Of a stretch of DNA of 32,357 bases, positions 5,620-27,867 are shown in pieces; positions within the stretch are counted from its first letter, which is position 1; every line of letters begins with the position of its first letter. Made by a program: the position numbers and the translations under genes. The notes under the pieces were generated by a model, which had not been told where the DNA came from, made no database searches, and worked only from the letters and a program-made list of their open reading frames with translations. The stretch is from a virus (lineage: Duplodnaviria; Heunggongvirae; Uroviricota; Caudoviricetes), in IMG/VR virus record IMGVR_UViG_2675903665_000002; one strand, 5' to 3'.

Positions 5620-5943
5620 AATCACGCCTGACGAATCGCGATTATCTCGCTATTGGTATTGCAGAGATTGCTGGACTCAGTGGCGCATGATTTGACAATG
5701 CCGCCAGAGCTATCGCATACTGACCGCACTAGAACTTCAAAGCGGTCACCCGCACCCGATAGCTTTGCGGCTTTTTTATGCCTGCAATTTGGCATAGTCA
5801 CATCCGTACAAAGGTCGGGTGGAGAGGCGTAATACAATACCCAAAAGGGGAATATGCCCGGAGCGTCTTTGAAGGCTCTAGTTGACACCCGATCACCAGC
5901 TACTAACTGGTGATTGCTAACTAAAACTTCAAAGGAGGTCATC

Positions 5944-6724: not shown

Positions 6725-7051
6725 ATGACAAAACTTGGATTCGTGATGAGAGGTCCGGTAAGAAGCGGAACTCATGCAAAGCGTAGCAAGAGTCGTATTT
6801 TTACTGGTAAGGTTGTAGCACGTAAATCAGCTATTGGCTCGTTCAATAGTGAAAATGCGGCATTGCGCCATATTTTTATCAGCACAAAGCCAAGAGCATC
6901 CGCTGATGTGCATACAATGTCTATTCCTATCACAAAGAATATAAAGCGGATAAAAAAGCTCTCATCTGCAGAATCAAAAGAGATATCTTTCCGCCAGCTT
7001 AACTCATTAGAAACGCATATGAAGGAAGAGGAATTCGATGTTTTTGAGTGA
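6725..7051 (+). CDS. Hypothetical small basic protein (108 aa), first gene of an AT-rich accessory pair
   Basis: GGAG SD 8 nt upstream of the ATG. AT-rich relative to flanking phage genes, with several AGA and ATA codons. Stop overlaps the start of the next gene. Confidence 0.6.
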   Translation: MTKLGFVMRGPVRSGTHAKRSKSRIFTGKVVARKSAIGSFNSENAALRHIFISTKPRASADVHTMSIPITKNIKRIKKLSSAESKEISFRQLNSLETHMKEEEFDVFE

Positions 7052-7550
7052 GTATAGCGGGAAGGTTATACCTACTGGTGAGTTTAAAACTGATGACTTT
7101 CTGATTTCGCTAAAAGATGCTTTTAAACAACACTGGCGTCATGGTCATCATCCTGATCTGGGAAAAGATACTCTTTTTGAAAGACCAGAGGAAGTATTAG
7201 GCTTCCATCTCAGAAAGGTTCATGTCAATATTGGTGAATATGCATCATATTCATACTCATGTACTGAACAGTGTTGGGATGAGTGGTCATATGGATTGAT
7301 TGATGAACAAGGAAATTACAGGCCAAAACCAACCAGTAACGCATATCTCATATATGCAGTCAATGAAATAAGAGATGCAGCCTTACTAGCTTATTGGGAC
7401 CCGCCCGCACACACCAAAGCTAACGCAAAAGTTTGGATGGATTCCGTATTGAATTTCACAAAATTATTTCATGAACGAACGAATACAGCTCCACTTAGTA
7501 GAAATGTTTATCCGTGGGATTATTCGTACAAATCCAAAAAGCCTGCATAG
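7038..7550 (+). CDS. Hypothetical protein (170 aa), second gene of the AT-rich accessory pair
   Basis: ATG 7038 with GAGG SD; overlaps the upstream gene by 14 nt. No family recognised. Confidence 0.6.
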   Translation: MFLSEYSGKVIPTGEFKTDDFLISLKDAFKQHWRHGHHPDLGKDTLFERPEEVLGFHLRKVHVNIGEYASYSYSCTEQCWDEWSYGLIDEQGNYRPKPTSNAYLIYAVNEIRDAALLAYWDPPAHTKANAKVWMDSVLNFTKLFHERTNTAPLSRNVYPWDYSYKSKKPA

Positions 7551-7631
7551 TAGTTTTTTATGGACGAAACAAAAGTCAGTGCTACACTCATTGACGCCAC
7601 ATTGAGGTGGTTTATAGATGGAAATTTCACA

Positions 7632-7793
7632 ATGAAAAAAGCATTTGCTGCACTGTTCGTTTTGTTGTCTCTGGTAGCTTCAACTCAGGCCTTTGCCGGT
7701 CGTTGTCAGCACGACAGCGACACTGCTGCTGACGGCTCCCGCTGCGGTGGGCGTTCTGCGGATTCCCGCCCGGGTGGCGGTGGCATTCGTTAA
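7632..7793 (+). CDS. Small secreted Gly-rich protein (53 aa) with N-terminal signal peptide
   Basis: MKKAFAALFVLLSLVASTQAFA signal-like N-terminus. ORF-track start at 7560 is probably too far upstream. Weak RBS. Confidence 0.4.
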   Translation: MKKAFAALFVLLSLVASTQAFAGRCQHDSDTAADGSRCGGRSADSRPGGGGIR

Positions 7794-7815
7794 AAACAAG
7801 GCCGCGAAAGCGGCC
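7791..7815 (-). terminator. Intrinsic terminator closing the long - strand structural operon
   Basis: GGCCGC-GAAA-GCGGCC hairpin; on the - strand it is followed by TTGTTTTTA. Confidence 0.65.
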
Positions 7816-7816
7816 T

Positions 7817-7832
7817 GTGACATGTCACACTA
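7817..7832. repeat. 16-mer GTGACATGTCACACTA, copy 1 (palindromic core TGTGACATGTCACA)
   Basis: Identical 16-mer recurs at 27852-27867. Both copies sit at a gene stop next to a - strand terminator, at the two boundaries of the structural operon. Confidence 0.6.
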
Positions 7833-8390
7833 CATTGATATATGATTCATAAAGTAGCTTAAAGATTTACTTCCCAGAAAAGAAATTTCTTTTCCTGGAT
7901 ATGTCGCAATAATTGAGCATGACTTATCCCCGTTAGAGGTAACAAATCCTGAATAACCTACTTGTTCTTTACCATTTTGTTGCTTGGCTAAAAAGTAGAG
8001 GTAGCTTATCTTTTTGCCCTCTGGGTAAAACTCTGCCAAACCAGTATCGGTGATTGAATATTTTATTCTCCCGCCTTGAGTAACGTTTTCCATCTCAAGT
8101 TTAGCTATGTCTTTTCTGTTGTATTCAGCATTGATTTTCCTTTCGAAATCAATGTTGTTTTCAAATGAGTAGGAAGCAACAGTCTGAATAGATGGGAACA
8201 CGTTTATCTGGATGCCTCCACAGTCGGCACAGGTATAAAGGTATGAATCAGATGGAATCCCCATAAAAGAAAACTGAGTTACCTTAAATTTATCGCTATC
8301 TCCAAAGTATTGAAGTTCGCATTTAACATTTTGCCCTGCAAAAGAAAATGCAGACATCAATATTGAAACAAAAAATATAATTGCCTTCAT
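7830..8390 (-). CDS. Secreted or lipoprotein-like accessory protein (186 aa), AT-rich
   Basis: N-terminal signal peptide MKAIIFFVSILMSAFSFAGQ. Last gene of the - strand operon. Composition differs from the neighbouring structural genes. Confidence 0.6.
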   Translation of the reverse strand: MKAIIFFVSILMSAFSFAGQNVKCELQYFGDSDKFKVTQFSFMGIPSDSYLYTCADCGGIQINVFPSIQTVASYSFENNIDFERKINAEYNRKDIAKLEMENVTQGGRIKYSITDTGLAEFYPEGKKISYLYFLAKQQNGKEQVGYSGFVTSNGDKSCSIIATYPGKEISFLGSKSLSYFMNHISM

Positions 8391-8392
8391 TA

Positions 8393-10945
8393 TTATTTAC
8401 CTAGCATGAACTGCGATGGTGGGATCAGAAAGTCGTTACCCTGCTCACGCTCAACACGGCGCTGATAACGCTCAAGAGAGCCTGGGTCAAGGGCATCTTG
8501 TATCCGGTTCAATATTAAACCATTCATCGCCGTACGAAGCCAGAACACGTTGAGGAATGGCGTATTGTCAAGTGCCGTGCGATACCAGTCACCCAAATCT
8601 GCATCCCCTCTCGTGGTCTGCTGGAGCAGCGTGATAATGCTGTCAGCGTTCGATGCTGCTGGCCCCATTAGCGACGTAACCGGCCCGGCCCCCATGCGGT
8701 TGACCTCGCCAAACATGAAGTCACCCAAGATGCCAAGACCGCCCCCCTGAGATGCGGCTGCGAGAAACGTCTTGGCATCTGCCGGGCGTGGTGTTTGCCC
8801 TTTCAGCATGAGTTTTGACTGCATGGAGATATAACCAAACATAGTCGCCCAGACAAAGAGGTTTGCAGCACCAAGGAAAGCCCCCTTCCCGTTACGTAGC
8901 AGCGCATTCGTCAGCGATCCGGTTTTCGACTCACCAAGCCCAGCAGGAATATAACCACGCCCGAATACTTCGCGTCCTAGTACGTTCTGCATGAAGCTTG
9001 CAGTGAACGATTTGTACTGACCAGCGAATCGTATTGCTTCCCCAGCCACCGTTCCTGGCACCGTGCCCATCTTCATAAACGCCTGCGTGCGATCGCCAGG
9101 CTCTGACATGGCGATATTCAGGCGGTCAAGGATGTAGCCGCGCAACTGCCCTTCCAATTGATCGCGTGCGTCAGCGATAGCGCGCTGCGTTGGTTTGATC
9201 CCCTTACTCTCTACATAACCGGCAATCACTTCGTCAGGCACGCCGCGGATGCCGCTGGTCGTCATGAACTTACGACCTTCGCTATCGGCCATGTCCATGT
9301 TGCGAAAAATTTCCCACTCACGTTCGCCAATACCGTGCAGATCCAGCACGCGTCGCAGGTCTTCCGGTAGCCGCGCATGAGACTGGTCAGCATTCTTTGC
9401 AAGCCAGTTGGTTATCATCATGGCGTTGCTGTTGCGACCGCTCTCGGTCCAGAAGTTCATGAGGTTGTACTTAAAGAAAAGCTGCTGCGCGCGACCAAGC
9501 TTTCCATTCAGCGTGTCATCACCAGATATGCGCCGGATGATTTCCTGCGTCATGGAGTCGGAATAAACTCCGATAGAGGAAAGGATCTCTTTCTGCTCCG
9601 CGCTGTTGTAACGCGTGAAGCGGCCTCTCATAGCACCAAGCAACGCCTGCATAAAATTCTGCCCTTGGTAGCGCATCTCGGTAGCGGCGATAGGCACGTC
9701 GTTAAACGATGAGATTACCGCGCCACCAAGTTGGCTCATACGCAACCAGCCGCGTACAGCCGCCGACGCATTGGCCCAGCCTACGCTGCCAGGAATATTT
9801 AGCGAGCCGTCAACCTGCGGCATTACGGTACGGTTAATGCGACGCACCTTCGTCATGTAGTCAGCCAACGCTGCCGGTCTTCCGGATTTGCTGATATCTT
9901 CAGCAATGGCGTCCGTCAGGTACTTAAACATGTTCTGTGGGTTAGTGCCCAGTACGCGCATCATGCCCGTTGTGCGGGCAGCGCTGTTTAAGCCACCAAA
10001 CAGCGCTTCTCGCAGGCTGCCGGTGCCGAATTGCTGGTTGTACTCGTGCCACGAGATACCATCTTTGAAGTGCAAAATTCGCTCTTGGCTGGCGCGTTTA
10101 GCTGCGTTCGCCGATCCCTTAAAGCCATTCATCCAATCGGGCTTTTCAGATGTAAGATGCACGCCGGAAGCCAGCCCGTTATAAATGTTACGCGTGAACT
10201 GCTCGCGGTCAGCCACGCCGTCAAAAGTGCGCTCATCAAGGCGCGGGAGAATAGCATTTCGCCATGCTTCATAACCTGCGGCGCGGATCTTCATGATGTC
10301 GTGTGACTGGCGCACTATATAGCCCGGCTCTTTGCGTATCCATGCCCCGGCGCGGTTCTCATCAATGCGCGCAGTTTCCTGCCATTTCATGATGATTTGT
10401 GCAGCGCTTACGGATTGCTTTGTCATACCGTCAGTTGACTGCCCGCGCCCTATGCGCCACATTGCATCGGCAATTTCCCGGTCATTGCTGCCGCTGGCGA
10501 TGAATTGCACCAGCCCGGCACGGTCAAAATCGTAGTTGATACCGGAATGATACTTGCCGCGCAGTTGCGCCACCTCCGAAGATACCGACCGGCGGGCGCC
10601 GGTACGCGCATCGTTGCGGCCAACCAGCATTGCTTCAAGCCCGATATCCGGGCGGTCTTTCCAGATAGTACGAAGCTCTCTAAGTCGTTGTGCGGCAATA
10701 CGGGCGTTGATTGCCTTATTGCGAGCCTCAATCTGTTTTGCCAGCATATCGGCATTGCTCAGTTCTTCCGCTGCGCGCATCGCGGCCTCTTCCAGAGACA
10801 GCGCCTCATTGGTCGCCAGAATTCGCCTAGTGGTGTCGTTCATGTCACGCACCAGCGACTCCATCTCATCGGAAGAAAGCTCGCGACCAGCGGCAGCATT
10901 TACACTGCGCTCGCACTGCGTCAAAAATTCGTTTGCTGCCATCAC
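8393..10945 (-). CDS. Large internal virion / DNA-ejection protein (850 aa)
   Basis: Position at the end of the internal-core protein block. Start overlaps the upstream stop (ATGA). Confidence 0.55.
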   Translation of the reverse strand: MMAANEFLTQCERSVNAAAGRELSSDEMESLVRDMNDTTRRILATNEALSLEEAAMRAAEELSNADMLAKQIEARNKAINARIAAQRLRELRTIWKDRPDIGLEAMLVGRNDARTGARRSVSSEVAQLRGKYHSGINYDFDRAGLVQFIASGSNDREIADAMWRIGRGQSTDGMTKQSVSAAQIIMKWQETARIDENRAGAWIRKEPGYIVRQSHDIMKIRAAGYEAWRNAILPRLDERTFDGVADREQFTRNIYNGLASGVHLTSEKPDWMNGFKGSANAAKRASQERILHFKDGISWHEYNQQFGTGSLREALFGGLNSAARTTGMMRVLGTNPQNMFKYLTDAIAEDISKSGRPAALADYMTKVRRINRTVMPQVDGSLNIPGSVGWANASAAVRGWLRMSQLGGAVISSFNDVPIAATEMRYQGQNFMQALLGAMRGRFTRYNSAEQKEILSSIGVYSDSMTQEIIRRISGDDTLNGKLGRAQQLFFKYNLMNFWTESGRNSNAMMITNWLAKNADQSHARLPEDLRRVLDLHGIGEREWEIFRNMDMADSEGRKFMTTSGIRGVPDEVIAGYVESKGIKPTQRAIADARDQLEGQLRGYILDRLNIAMSEPGDRTQAFMKMGTVPGTVAGEAIRFAGQYKSFTASFMQNVLGREVFGRGYIPAGLGESKTGSLTNALLRNGKGAFLGAANLFVWATMFGYISMQSKLMLKGQTPRPADAKTFLAAASQGGGLGILGDFMFGEVNRMGAGPVTSLMGPAASNADSIITLLQQTTRGDADLGDWYRTALDNTPFLNVFWLRTAMNGLILNRIQDALDPGSLERYQRRVEREQGNDFLIPPSQFMLGK

Positions 10946-24558: not shown

Positions 24559-24635
24559 GTGGCATTAGCTCAGTTGGACAGAGCAACCGCCTTCTAAGCG
24601 GTTGGTCGCAGGTTCGAATCCTGCATGCCACGCCA
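24559..24635 (+). tRNA. argU: tRNA-Arg (anticodon UCU), argU-like
   Basis: 77 nt. 7-bp acceptor stem GTGGCAT/ATGCCAC, D-arm GCTCAGTTGGACAGAGC, anticodon arm ACCGC-CTTCTAA-GCGGT (anticodon TCT), T-arm GCAGG-TTCGAAT-CCTGC, discriminator G plus CCA. Near-identical in arrangement to E. coli argU. Confidence 0.95.
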
Positions 24636-24678
24636 GAATCACGCCTAAGGACCGTGATGCCAGAAGTTCCAGGTGCTT

Positions 24679-24721
24679 GGCGGTGATGGTTTCCCTTGAA
24701 GGACTATCACCGCCCTTTTTA
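24679..24721 (+). terminator. Intrinsic terminator downstream of the tRNA
   Basis: GGCGGTGAT...ATCACCGCC stem followed by CTTTTTA. Confidence 0.65.
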
Positions 24722-24798
24722 CAGCAGGACGCCATTGCGATGACTTCATGCTGTAAACCCGTACAGCCACGGAAGGCATAACTCATTGCTTCCAGTTC

Positions 24799-24822
24799 GC
24801 CCGGTTCGCCGGGCATTTTTTT
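24799..24822 (+). terminator. Intrinsic terminator (GCCCGG-TTCG-CCGGGC plus T8)
   Basis: 6-bp GC stem with TTCG tetraloop followed by ATTTTTTT. Confidence 0.8.
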
Positions 24823-24838
24823 GCTTGATGACCGCAAA

Positions 24839-24857
24839 TTACCTTAAAGGTATAATC
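24839..24857 (+). promoter_or_regulatory. Near-consensus operator (TTACCttaaaGGTAT, 9/10) fused to TATAAT, directly upstream of the membrane-protein gene
   Basis: Same TTAAA spacer as the 6668 site. TATAAT at 24851-24856. Confidence 0.5.
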
Positions 24858-25676
24858 ATGAAAAACTTCAAGGTAATTAGCATGTTTGAATCGTTTAAAG
24901 AGCTGTTTTTATCTACTGCCAATACTGCCGTGAATCGAGCCAAAAACCCTGTGCTTGGTGCTTTTGTTATGTCCTGGTGCGCCTTCAACTGGAAATCAAT
25001 TCTTTATCTATTTTTTAGCAAATCAAACATAATAGATAAAATTTCATATATCTCAGATAACAGCACATGGAAAACTGTTATGTTTTATCCATGCTTATCT
25101 GTAATTGCTATCTGCTGCCTATTACCATGGGTAAACAATATCATTAACGTATGGCAAGCAAAGCCTCTTGATAATAATGACTCAATCGAAAATCACCTGA
25201 AGGCAAGAAAAATCCAGCGTGAAACCAGACTGCAGAGGTTATTGGCTAAAAAAGATGTTACATACGACAAAGTTAAGACTGGCGCGGAAAAAGACATCCA
25301 AGAGATGAAAGAAGAGATTATTCGATCAAAGAATAGTATGGGGGAATTGACTGCTGAGTTGAAAGCTAAAGATGACGAATTGAGATCCGCCAGTGCTCAG
25401 TTAGCAGCTCTAAATCATTCATTAAAAGAGATATCGGAAACTCTTGGAAGAATGAATGAGGCATATAAGACCCTCCAAAATGATTTCGACGAATACAAAC
25501 TCAAATACCCTGAAAAATCTCAAATAAAAAGTCTTGCACTTGGCAACGGCCAAACAATTAGCAACTTTTTGGAGCAACACAACTTATCCGGATTAAAATC
25601 TGGTAAGCCAGACGTTTTTAATAACTTTGGTGTTCTATCTGGATTATCAGGTTTCGAGGATAAAAATAAAGACTAA
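24858..25676 (+). CDS. Accessory membrane protein: two predicted TM helices followed by a long coiled-coil; AT-rich
   Basis: Hydrophobic segments VLGAFVMSWCAFNWKSILYLFF and VMFYPCLSVIAICCLLPWV, then a charged heptad-like region. Opposite strand to the structural genes. Start may be ATG 24882 if TATAAT is the -10. Confidence 0.6.
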   Translation: MKNFKVISMFESFKELFLSTANTAVNRAKNPVLGAFVMSWCAFNWKSILYLFFSKSNIIDKISYISDNSTWKTVMFYPCLSVIAICCLLPWVNNIINVWQAKPLDNNDSIENHLKARKIQRETRLQRLLAKKDVTYDKVKTGAEKDIQEMKEEIIRSKNSMGELTAELKAKDDELRSASAQLAALNHSLKEISETLGRMNEAYKTLQNDFDEYKLKYPEKSQIKSLALGNGQTISNFLEQHNLSGLKSGKPDVFNNFGVLSGLSGFEDKNKD

Positions 25677-27851: not shown

Positions 27852-27867
27852 GTGACATGTCACACTA
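27852..27867. repeat. 16-mer GTGACATGTCACACTA, copy 2 (palindromic core GTGACATGTCAC)
   Basis: Identical to 7817-7832. Overlaps the stop codon of gene 27860..28201 in a different frame context from copy 1, so conservation is at DNA level. Confidence 0.6.

Follow-up and report, generated by a model that had tools for sequence, protein, structure and literature searches.

Two small genes flank the terminator of the late operon on opposite strands in an Escherichia coli prophage of the epsilon15/phiV10 type, one encoding a 186-residue protein and the other a 53-residue, glycine-rich precursor. We tentatively propose that these are two independent accessory genes of the "moron" type whose products are exported through the Sec pathway, the 186-residue protein acting as a superinfection exclusion factor and the 53-residue product as a peptide that acts on the cell envelope. 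The window analysed here, by which we mean the whole stretch of 32,357 nucleotides in IMG/VR record IMGVR_UViG_2675903665_000002, is assigned on its sequence to the genus Uetakevirus. Neither gene is an artefact, and neither is explained by a characterised family.

A preliminary description of this region had presented the two as secreted small proteins at the distal end of the structural operon that converge on a terminator and a 16-mer. Both open reading frames exist, are annotated in RefSeq as coding sequences of identical prophages (WP_000708858 for the 53-residue and WP_000643933 for the 186-residue product) and are under purifying selection, and the hairpin and the 16-mer GTGACATGTCACACTA do lie between them (Table 1). 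The larger gene is indeed AT-rich, with a GC content of 0.355 against 0.53-0.58 in three upstream genes, and the smaller product is Gly-rich, with 8 Gly among the 31 residues of its predicted mature part. Signal-peptide features are found in every family member, 20 of 20 for the larger protein and 25 of 25 for the smaller, by a heuristic that asks for an N-terminal Lys or Arg, a hydrophobic core with a 10-residue Kyte-Doolittle value of at least 2.5, and small residues at positions -3 and -1. The distal position holds for the 186-residue gene, which is the last cistron of the operon, whereas the 53-residue gene lies on the opposite strand as an autonomous cassette outside it. Nor are the two genes a pair: the 53-residue gene is missing from 8 of the 21 loci with a 186-residue homologue, two more have only a 55-58% match, and it is present in many unrelated elements. 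We therefore rejected a functional link between them.

The 186-residue protein and its slot

The 186-residue gene starts 2 nucleotides past the stop codon of a gene for an 850-residue virion protein, behind an AGGT Shine-Dalgarno-like sequence, and ends at the 16-mer and the terminator. Its ratio of nonsynonymous to synonymous substitution rates (dN/dS) of about 0.10-0.13 places the protein under purifying selection, and its homologues are AT-rich relative to their neighbours wherever this was checked. All 20 family members combine an N-terminal Lys or Arg and a hydrophobic core with an AxA-type site, the predicted cleavage region reading SFA/G, AFA/E or AYA/D (the slash marks the cut). The protein has no lipobox of the form [LVI][ASTVI][GAS]C, since it reads SFA/GQ and its first Cys is residue 24, and its only hydrophobic segment is at the N-terminus. 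We infer that it is exported via Sec and that the signal peptide (residues 1-18) is cleaved, leaving a mature domain of about 168 residues. Four Cys (24, 54, 57 and 158) are invariant across the family.

An exhaustive search with a hidden Markov model (HMM) found 8 representatives of the family in 1.84 billion proteins, and 17-21 clusters were found in 5.8 billion proteins. Its hosts are Escherichia, Salmonella, Citrobacter, Cronobacter, Enterobacter, Klebsiella and Hafnia, with further members in metagenomes. There was no match by tblastn in 50,697 deposited phage genomes and no relative in a pattern scan of 185,579 species-representative genomes. Pfam, NCBIfam and PADLOC returned nothing for the protein, none of the 20 members is recognised by a Pfam model, and PHROGs gave only functionally uninformative families. 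Among 5426 complete E. coli genomes the gene is present in 56, compared with 422-531 for the neighbouring module that carries the 53-residue gene; in other words, the protein is dispensable for this phage type.

A fold could nevertheless be predicted once the alignment was broad enough. With 14 close homologues the AlphaFold model had a predicted local distance difference test (pLDDT) of 44, whereas 20 sequences that included members of 27-44% identity gave a usable one, with a pLDDT of 86.9, a predicted template modelling score (pTM) of 0.81 and five consistent models. Only the signal-peptide region was of low confidence, and the N-terminal helix stands as a separate segment. The model is an antiparallel beta-sheet sandwiched by helices that superposes on PsbP or Mog1. 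Its structural matches were cyanobacterial PsbP (score 11.7, with 138 residues aligned at 5% identity), plant PsbP (10.0), SciW (9.6), Mog1 and PA0094 (both 9.5), BT_1490 (9.3), LpqN (8.9), Tsi3 (7.8), DcrB (7.7), TplEi (7.6) and PA3488 (6.4). Foldseek agrees weakly with this assignment, and among predicted viral structures the best matches were two phage lipoproteins (E 9e-5 and 3e-4), one of them named "host cell surface-exposed lipoprotein". No Pfam family of the PsbP clan (PsbP, DcrB/DUF1795, Tli4_C and others) was detected at E<=10 in the 20 members. Taken together, a PsbP/Mog1-like model and the lack of any Pfam match make the family a sequence orphan with that predicted fold. Sequence identity to the PsbP/Mog1/DUF1795 superfamily, which includes DcrB, Eag/SciW and the type VI secretion system (T6SS) immunity proteins Tsi3, TplEi and PA3488, is only 5-12%, and the four-Cys pattern and the strict phage-slot context are peculiar to the 186-residue protein. 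DcrB also differs in having a lipoprotein anchor where the 186-residue protein has a signal peptide.

The position of the gene is constant. At all 21 loci the homologue lies immediately downstream of a homologue of the 850-residue gene and on the same strand, and this holds down to homologues of 29-36% identity. Its divergence does not follow that of its neighbour, and the two are exchanged independently. At three loci (L030-L032) synonymous divergence (dS) is 0.26-0.30 in the 186-residue gene against 1.2-1.3 in the adjoining one, and at L013 the homologue is 70% identical where the C-terminal 300 residues of the neighbour are only 28% identical; at L012 and L035 the homologue is 66-67% identical and the neighbour 89-90%. 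Discordant divergence at a constant position indicates that the gene is a cassette confined to one slot. Like morons, both it and the 53-residue gene occur in some close relatives and not in others, and their boundaries fall at gene junctions.

In or adjoining this slot, seven other genes for membrane proteins, lipoproteins or secreted proteins are found in relatives, and every occupant seen is directed to the envelope. In phiV10 the slot holds a 46-residue protein (phiV10p21) with two transmembrane helices, in phiv142-3 and E. coli 19KM1803 a 98-residue protein with three (annotated as 118 residues in phiv142-3), in another E. coli prophage a 104-residue membrane protein, and in TL-2011b an AT-rich, transmembrane-anchored protein of 187 residues beside the ejection gene. 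A Uetakevirus-like prophage of Klebsiella pneumoniae has there (L015, 6711-7094, minus strand) a member of the Rap1a family of T6SS immunity proteins with a signal peptide (PF18602, 48.2 bits where the cut-off is 27.7, E 1.6e-12), followed by a second gene for an AT-rich, secreted 134-residue protein. Metagenomic relatives add a 137-residue lipoprotein after the 186-residue homologue, and this lipoprotein is weakly related to the Klebsiella 134-residue protein (E 2e-7). A literature search on Rap1a in prophages found nothing relevant.

The 53-residue peptide and the late-operon terminator

The hairpin between the two genes is a 7-bp GC stem, AGGCCGC-TTTC-GCGGCCT, followed by TGTTTTTAAC on the minus strand, and the identical sequence is annotated as a terminator in phiV10. 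The U-tract is found on the minus strand only, and the hairpin therefore terminates the late operon; plus-strand RNA has no U-tract at this point, yet folds unusually well (z -4.0). Of a perfect 14-bp palindrome, 13 bases fall within the adjoining 16-mer, and this palindrome is kept beside the terminator in phiV10, TL-2011b and phiv142-3. A second exact copy lies near the other end of the operon (Table 1), and none of 100 shuffled windows had any match. With one copy after the last gene and one before the small-terminase gene, the motif brackets the late operon of about 20 kb, and it may serve as a binding site for a regulator or mark a boundary for module exchange. A promoter-like site on the plus strand, GTGACA-18-TATGAT, overlaps the palindrome with 10 of 12 consensus matches and points antisense into the 3' end of the 186-residue gene; this is no more than agreement with the consensus, and the conserved block in other phages does not extend over its -10 element.

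The 53-residue precursor consists of a predicted signal peptide, MKKAFAALFVLLSLVASTQAFA (residues 1-22), followed by the predicted mature peptide of 31 residues, GRCQHDSDTAADGSRCGGRSADSRPGGGGIR. Across the family, position -3 is Ala, Ser or Val in 25 of 25 members and position -1 is Ala or Ser in 24, and two Cys are invariant. There is no lipobox, as the junction reads AFA/GRC, with Arg or Asn at -1 of the Cys. Among the Enterobacterales the core, C-x12-C...RPGG, hardly changes, in contrast to a signal peptide that is free to vary. Between genera the core shows 10-19 third-position against 2-7 first- and second-position differences, with 0-4 amino acid changes in 25 codons (in one comparison, 17 third-position against 5 other differences and a single amino acid change), a pattern that indicates purifying selection at the protein level. 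The ATG at 7632 and a Shine-Dalgarno-like purine run are kept in 7 of 7 different genomic contexts. A 77-residue extended reading frame was rejected, as only this ATG is conserved.

The gene travels within a 275-bp module that comprises its leader, the gene itself, the late-operon terminator and the palindrome. This module alone is common to the window and the Uetakevirus phages TL-2011b, phiv142-3, HEMP4 and EC.W1-9, at 97-100% identity and with different genes on both sides in those phages, and the 422-531 complete E. coli genomes that carry it make up about 8-10% of the total. No consensus sigma-70 site was found upstream of the gene; a candidate, TTGACG-16-TATAGA, fails the rule of the scan. 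Part of the upstream region is kept in four contexts. Elsewhere, a Rahnella megaplasmid has the gene in a lambdoid prophage, downstream of the Q antiterminator, and a sipho-type prophage of Pectobacterium has it behind the tail genes; it is also found beside a MobA relaxase in Salmonella, on an IncFII plasmid and on a 3.36-kb mobilisable Klebsiella plasmid, where it is the only annotated gene besides two mobilisation genes (this gene table may be incomplete).

The comparison with classical morons of the HK97 and lambda lom/bor type holds in part. Presence and absence in near-identical prophages, the deviant base composition of the 186-residue gene, and a 53-residue gene that moves as a 275-bp unit with its own leader into moron positions such as the one downstream of Q are all familiar. 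However, the scan detected no consensus promoter before either gene, the U-tract of the terminator is on the strand opposite to the 53-residue gene, and the 186-residue gene is not insulated from the late operon but forms part of it.

Species-representative genomes yielded 57 loci of the 53-residue type in a pattern scan, and these extend to Rhizobiales, cyanobacteria, Rhodoferax, Vibrio, Bacteriovorax and Polyangiaceae, and all of the hosts are diderm. These wider-family loci (L042-L098) include, for example, Mesorhizobium (L055), Agrobacterium (L075), Anabaena (L076) and Bacteriovorax (L088). Their consensus is a signal peptide followed by C-x5-D-[RT]-A-[AS]-D-G-S-R-C-G-x-R-[AS]-x3-R-P-G-G-x-end, within which C...DGSRCG.R...GG is invariant. 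The D-x-A-x-D-G-x-x-C segment presumably recalls DxDxDG calcium-binding loops such as Excalibur. Some cyanobacterial relatives have a lipoprotein signal instead, or carry the motif as the C-terminal tail of a larger exported protein. No Pfam or NCBIfam family and no relative in the PDB was found for the peptide, no conserved partner (an enzyme for ribosomally synthesised and post-translationally modified peptides, a receptor or an immunity gene) is present in the 57 loci, and a search of the literature on the peptide returned nothing relevant. It thus appears to represent a widespread, undescribed family of mini-proteins, and is the more unexpected of the two products.

We hypothesize that the precursor is cut after AFA22, before the Gly, to give a stand-alone periplasmic or secreted mini-protein of 31 residues with a single Cys25-Cys38 disulfide loop. 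The near-invariant core, the transport of the gene as single cargo on phages and plasmids, and the relatives in other diderm phyla suggest that it would act alone on a conserved component of the envelope. AimP of the arbitrium system of Bacillus phages and the colicin lysis and entericidin proteins are similar in that a precursor of about 50 residues, carried on phages or small plasmids, consists of a signal peptide and a short hydrophilic product. The peptide is not a lysis or entericidin-type lipoprotein, because it has no lipobox, and it differs from AimP in having no AimR/AimX-like partner or other conserved neighbour, in conserving a whole disulfide-loop core rather than a C-terminal hexapeptide, and in its diderm hosts.

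It is distinctly unlikely, in our estimation, that the 53-residue product is not secreted at all and remains a small protein anchored in the inner membrane, acting like MgrB-type regulators or Hok-type toxins. It does have a single hydrophobic segment (residues 3-21), NCBI and the TL-2011b annotation call it a "transmembrane anchored protein", and phrog_14503 is a "membrane associated protein". However, 24-25 of 25 members keep the small residues at -3 and -1, the hydrophobic segment is free to vary while the hydrophilic tail is conserved, and the cyanobacterial relatives with a lipoprotein signal, or with the motif at the end of larger exported proteins, do not fit an anchor. The conserved AxA site predicts cleavage, and for this reason the name "transmembrane anchored protein" is likely to be incorrect.

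Proposed superinfection exclusion and its alternatives

Our best guess for the 186-residue protein, drawn by analogy, is a periplasmic binder that excludes superinfecting phages by the logic of Spackle or SieA. Translation would take place from the final cistron of the late operon; after export and removal of the signal peptide behind SFA18, the protein would fold in the periplasm into a disulfide-stabilised alpha-beta-alpha domain of the PsbP/Mog1 type that serves as a protein-binding scaffold. There it would bind and neutralise the periplasm-exposed part of the DNA-delivery apparatus of incoming related podophages, candidate targets being the proteins of the trans-envelope tube or the SLT lytic-transglycosylase domain of the 898-residue ejection protein. 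As a result, an infected or lysogenic cell would refuse a second phage. The PsbP/Mog1-like fold recurs among bacterial periplasmic binding and neutralising proteins, and one protein of this fold, DcrB, is required on the host side for phage C1 to inject its DNA.

The closest model for such an action is Spackle of phage T4, a periplasmic inhibitor of the gp5 lysozyme (PMC7677548). Like the 186-residue protein it is a small soluble phage protein with a cleavable signal peptide, and it binds the incoming penetration machinery. The resemblance does not extend to sequence: there is no similarity to Spackle, and the only PDB chain matched at E<0.5 is a spurious one, Llp. The predicted fold is PsbP-like, with no Spackle or gp5 chain among the structural matches listed, and Spackle is an early gene of a lytic myovirus whereas the 186-residue gene is the last late-operon gene of a temperate podovirus.

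The closest model for its genomic position is SieA of P22, which blocks DNA delivery by targeting the ejection proteins gp16 and gp20, where escape mutations lie (PMC10883804). The sieA gene directly follows the last ejection-protein gene, gene 16, next to mnt/arc/ant, just as the 186-residue gene follows an ejection gene near an Ant/Arc region resembling immunity I, and several unrelated sequence types occupy the one position in both cases. However, SieA is a three-helix inner-membrane protein without a signal sequence (PMC10883804), encoded convergently on the opposite strand with its own promoter, and the 186-residue protein is predicted to be soluble and is co-oriented with its operon. The two have no sequence similarity (E 34).

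The preliminary description had considered secreted cargo at this position typical of lysogenic-conversion or exclusion factors. The exported-looking products, the envelope genes in the slot and the example of sieA agree with it, and both products are plausible as envelope conversion or exclusion factors; the phenotype, and the expression in lysogens that classical prophage exclusion requires, are unsupported. Several further observations weigh against exclusion. In the stretch of about 1.9 kb upstream of the 186-residue gene, a consensus scan revealed no sigma-70-like promoter and, because of this and of the 2-nucleotide gap after the 850-residue gene, late lytic expression is at least as likely as lysogenic expression. 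The PsbP-like fold is a generic binding scaffold and specifies no target, and the very different alleles of the last ejection protein (28% at L013) argue against tight co-adaptation with that protein. A dN/dS of about 0.1 shows no gene-wide signature of an arms race, and gene-wide positive selection was rejected on the same value. PADLOC defence models match neither product. For the 53-residue peptide, relatives in contexts of Rhizobiales and cyanobacteria that look like neither phage nor plasmid suggest a function that is not specific to phage exclusion.

The main rival, which we consider unlikely, is that the 186-residue protein is an orphan periplasmic immunity protein against the wall- or membrane-degrading toxins of competitors (T6SS effectors or bacteriocins), so that the lysogen is converted for inter-bacterial warfare and not for phage exclusion. 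The Rap1a-family protein with a signal peptide in the same slot of the Klebsiella relative speaks for this, as do the fold relatives of the model. On the other hand, all 21 contexts are the phage slot and none is beside a T6SS effector or in a T6SS cluster, the exhaustive search yielded only its 8 representatives, no Pfam immunity family matches any of the 20 members, and no promoter for lysogen expression was found.

Another possibility, and a very improbable one, is that the protein blocks an outer-membrane receptor in the manner of T5 Llp or phi80 Cor, a "lytic conversion" that prevents re-adsorption and spares the progeny from debris. Llp is an exported phage protein made during lytic growth, and late-operon expression would suit such a role. 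The best PDB match of the family profile is T5 Llp in complex with FhuA (8a60_B, E 0.037), and the two have in common the motif K-x-[IV]-K-C-E-x-x-Y-x-x-D-x-x-K-[FY]-K after the signal peptide (pairwise BLASTP E 1e-4). That profile match included the signal peptide, and the Llp sequence was verified; an HMM without the signal peptide scored 4.8 bits against mature Llp, rank 35 of 5001 with 5000 shuffles making up the rest, a value not significant for a database search, and homology was rejected. The 186-residue protein has no lipobox or lipidated Cys, is three times larger and has another predicted fold. The llp gene also differs in context, being divergent from the receptor-binding gene oad (pb5) and having annotated promoters, where the 186-residue gene follows the gene of an internal virion protein. 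Uetakeviruses use the O-antigen through their tailspikes, and we know of no protein receptor for them, which further counts against receptor blocking.

We give still less credence to the idea that the protein stays in the cytoplasm, with a hydrophobic N-terminus that is no signal peptide, and serves the neighbouring ejection proteins as a chaperone or assembly factor, similar to the DUF1795 chaperones Eag/SciW, whose genes adjoin those of their T6SS effectors. Although the gene always adjoins the 850-residue gene and is probably translationally coupled to it across the 2-nucleotide gap, the canonical n/h/c signal peptides with AxA sites in 20 of 20 members and the four invariant Cys speak against such a factor, most prophages with near-identical ejection genes do without it (56 against 422-531 genomes), and the 850-residue protein has no strongly hydrophobic segment to shield. 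Least probable of all is the preliminary alternative of an unconventional receptor-binding protein or lysis accessory, which has only the distal position in the virion operon in its favour and is contradicted by a Sec signal peptide incompatible with cytoplasmic virion assembly, by the four invariant Cys and a PsbP-like fold that is neither tail-fibre-like nor spanin-like, by the absence of the gene from most relatives, and by the separate tailspike and complete holin/GH19 endolysin/DUF2514 spanin cassette of those relatives.

The exclusion hypothesis can also be drawn more boldly, in a form that we regard as rather unlikely. In this form the 53-residue product would be the phage- and plasmid-borne enterobacterial branch of an undescribed multi-phylum family of Sec-exported disulfide-loop peptides of about 25 residues, acting on the diderm envelope or as a diffusible signal and captured to reprogram or shield hosts; the 186-residue protein, for its part, would be the first example of a soluble protein that neutralises a podophage ejection apparatus in the periplasm, and the phage "immunity island" encoding it would take up T6SS immunity genes as well.

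The surrounding prophage and significance

Between 7000 and 9000 the window is 99.3-99.7% identical to chromosomal prophages in seven complete E. coli genomes, and a short block is common to it and to the phages TL-2011b, phiv142-3, HEMP4, EC.W1-9 and phiV10. The late operon runs on the minus strand from the small-terminase gene to the 186-residue gene. It encodes small and large terminase, portal, capsid, an 823-residue tail protein, a core protein of the T7 gp14 family, the 898-residue protein with its SLT domain (residues ~282-395), a 565-residue protein and the 850-residue "virion structural protein", whose gene thus lies after those of the gp14-family and SLT-domain proteins and directly upstream of the 186-residue gene. 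Genes for ejection proteins lie in clusters in podophages, epsilon15 among them (review, PMC8954989).

Table 1. Positions of the features discussed, numbered from the first nucleotide of the window
Feature	Position	Strand	Basis or remark
sRNA-Xcc1	5813-5902	+	Rfam match, 62.9 bits (gathering 53); immediately upstream of Ant antirepressor gene
Overlapping 108-residue and 170-residue genes	6725-7550	+	GC 0.39-0.40; beside 53-residue gene
275-bp mobile module	7554..7828	+	
77-residue extended reading frame (rejected)	7560-7793		phrog_3117
Candidate promoter of 53-residue gene	7591-7618		
53-residue precursor gene	7632..7793	+	open reading frame; phrog_14503 match, E 2e-40
Predicted signal peptide of 53-residue precursor	7632-7697	+	
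Predicted mature 31-residue peptide	7698-7790	+	
Intrinsic terminator hairpin of late operon	7799..7816	-	terminator scan, RNA fold
14-bp palindrome	7816-7829		
16-mer	7817..7832		exact repeat search; overlaps stop codon of 186-residue gene
Promoter-like site	7817-7846	+	
186-residue gene	7830..8390	-	open reading frame, ATG start; RefSeq coding sequence in identical prophages
Predicted signal peptide of 186-residue protein	8337-8390	-	
850-residue virion structural/internal (ejection-type) protein gene	8393..10945	-	phrog_684 "virion structural protein", E 9e-272
tRNA gene	24559-24632		
Region of tRNA gene and 296-residue reading frame	24559-25676		between portal and large terminase genes
Second exact copy of 16-mer	27852..27867		gap just upstream of small-terminase gene (late operon start)

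On the plus strand, the Ant antirepressor gene, an overlapping pair of AT-rich genes for 108 and 170 residues, and the 53-residue gene converge on the end of the operon. RefSeq names the 170-residue protein a YafO-family type II toxin, with a Pfam score of 20.1 bits that is below the gathering threshold of 25, and YafO-like genes recur at the same place in relatives. The pair is a candidate toxin-antitoxin module; PADLOC models gave no match to it. Inserted between the portal and large-terminase genes, a tRNA gene is followed by an AT-rich reading frame of 296 residues, on the strand opposite to the operon, that matches phrog_4780, a family of unknown function, and that PADLOC links weakly (E 4e-5 and weaker) to DndD, LmuB and JetC-type proteins. 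This reading frame is a possible defence moron.

The left 6.6 kb of the window carries a repressor-like gene, a RecE-like nuclease, RecT, an MT-A70 methylase and Ant, and resembles the early regions of other E. coli prophages up to about 6619, where the match stops. No tailspike, lysis or integrase genes are present in the window; in canonical relatives the tailspike and lysis genes come after this region. The boundary of the left-end match and the missing modules suggest either a mosaic joint or a truncated prophage prediction.

To our knowledge, superinfection exclusion in phages of the epsilon15/phiV10 type is known only at the level of the O-antigen, the O-acetyltransferase of phiV10 being an example. 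A variable slot filled only with exported or membrane proteins therefore offers a candidate list of blockers of podophage DNA delivery, and possibly of T6SS toxins, that would help to explain the host range of phages in E. coli, Salmonella and Klebsiella and to design phage therapy. As modelled, the 186-residue protein defines a new sequence family whose fold and type of genomic niche are already known; if it does exclude phages, its fold would be new among the known exclusion proteins. Roughly one in ten complete E. coli genomes has the gene for the 53-residue peptide, which is also found on small plasmids and in distant phyla. The extreme conservation of this peptide implies a specific, conserved target.

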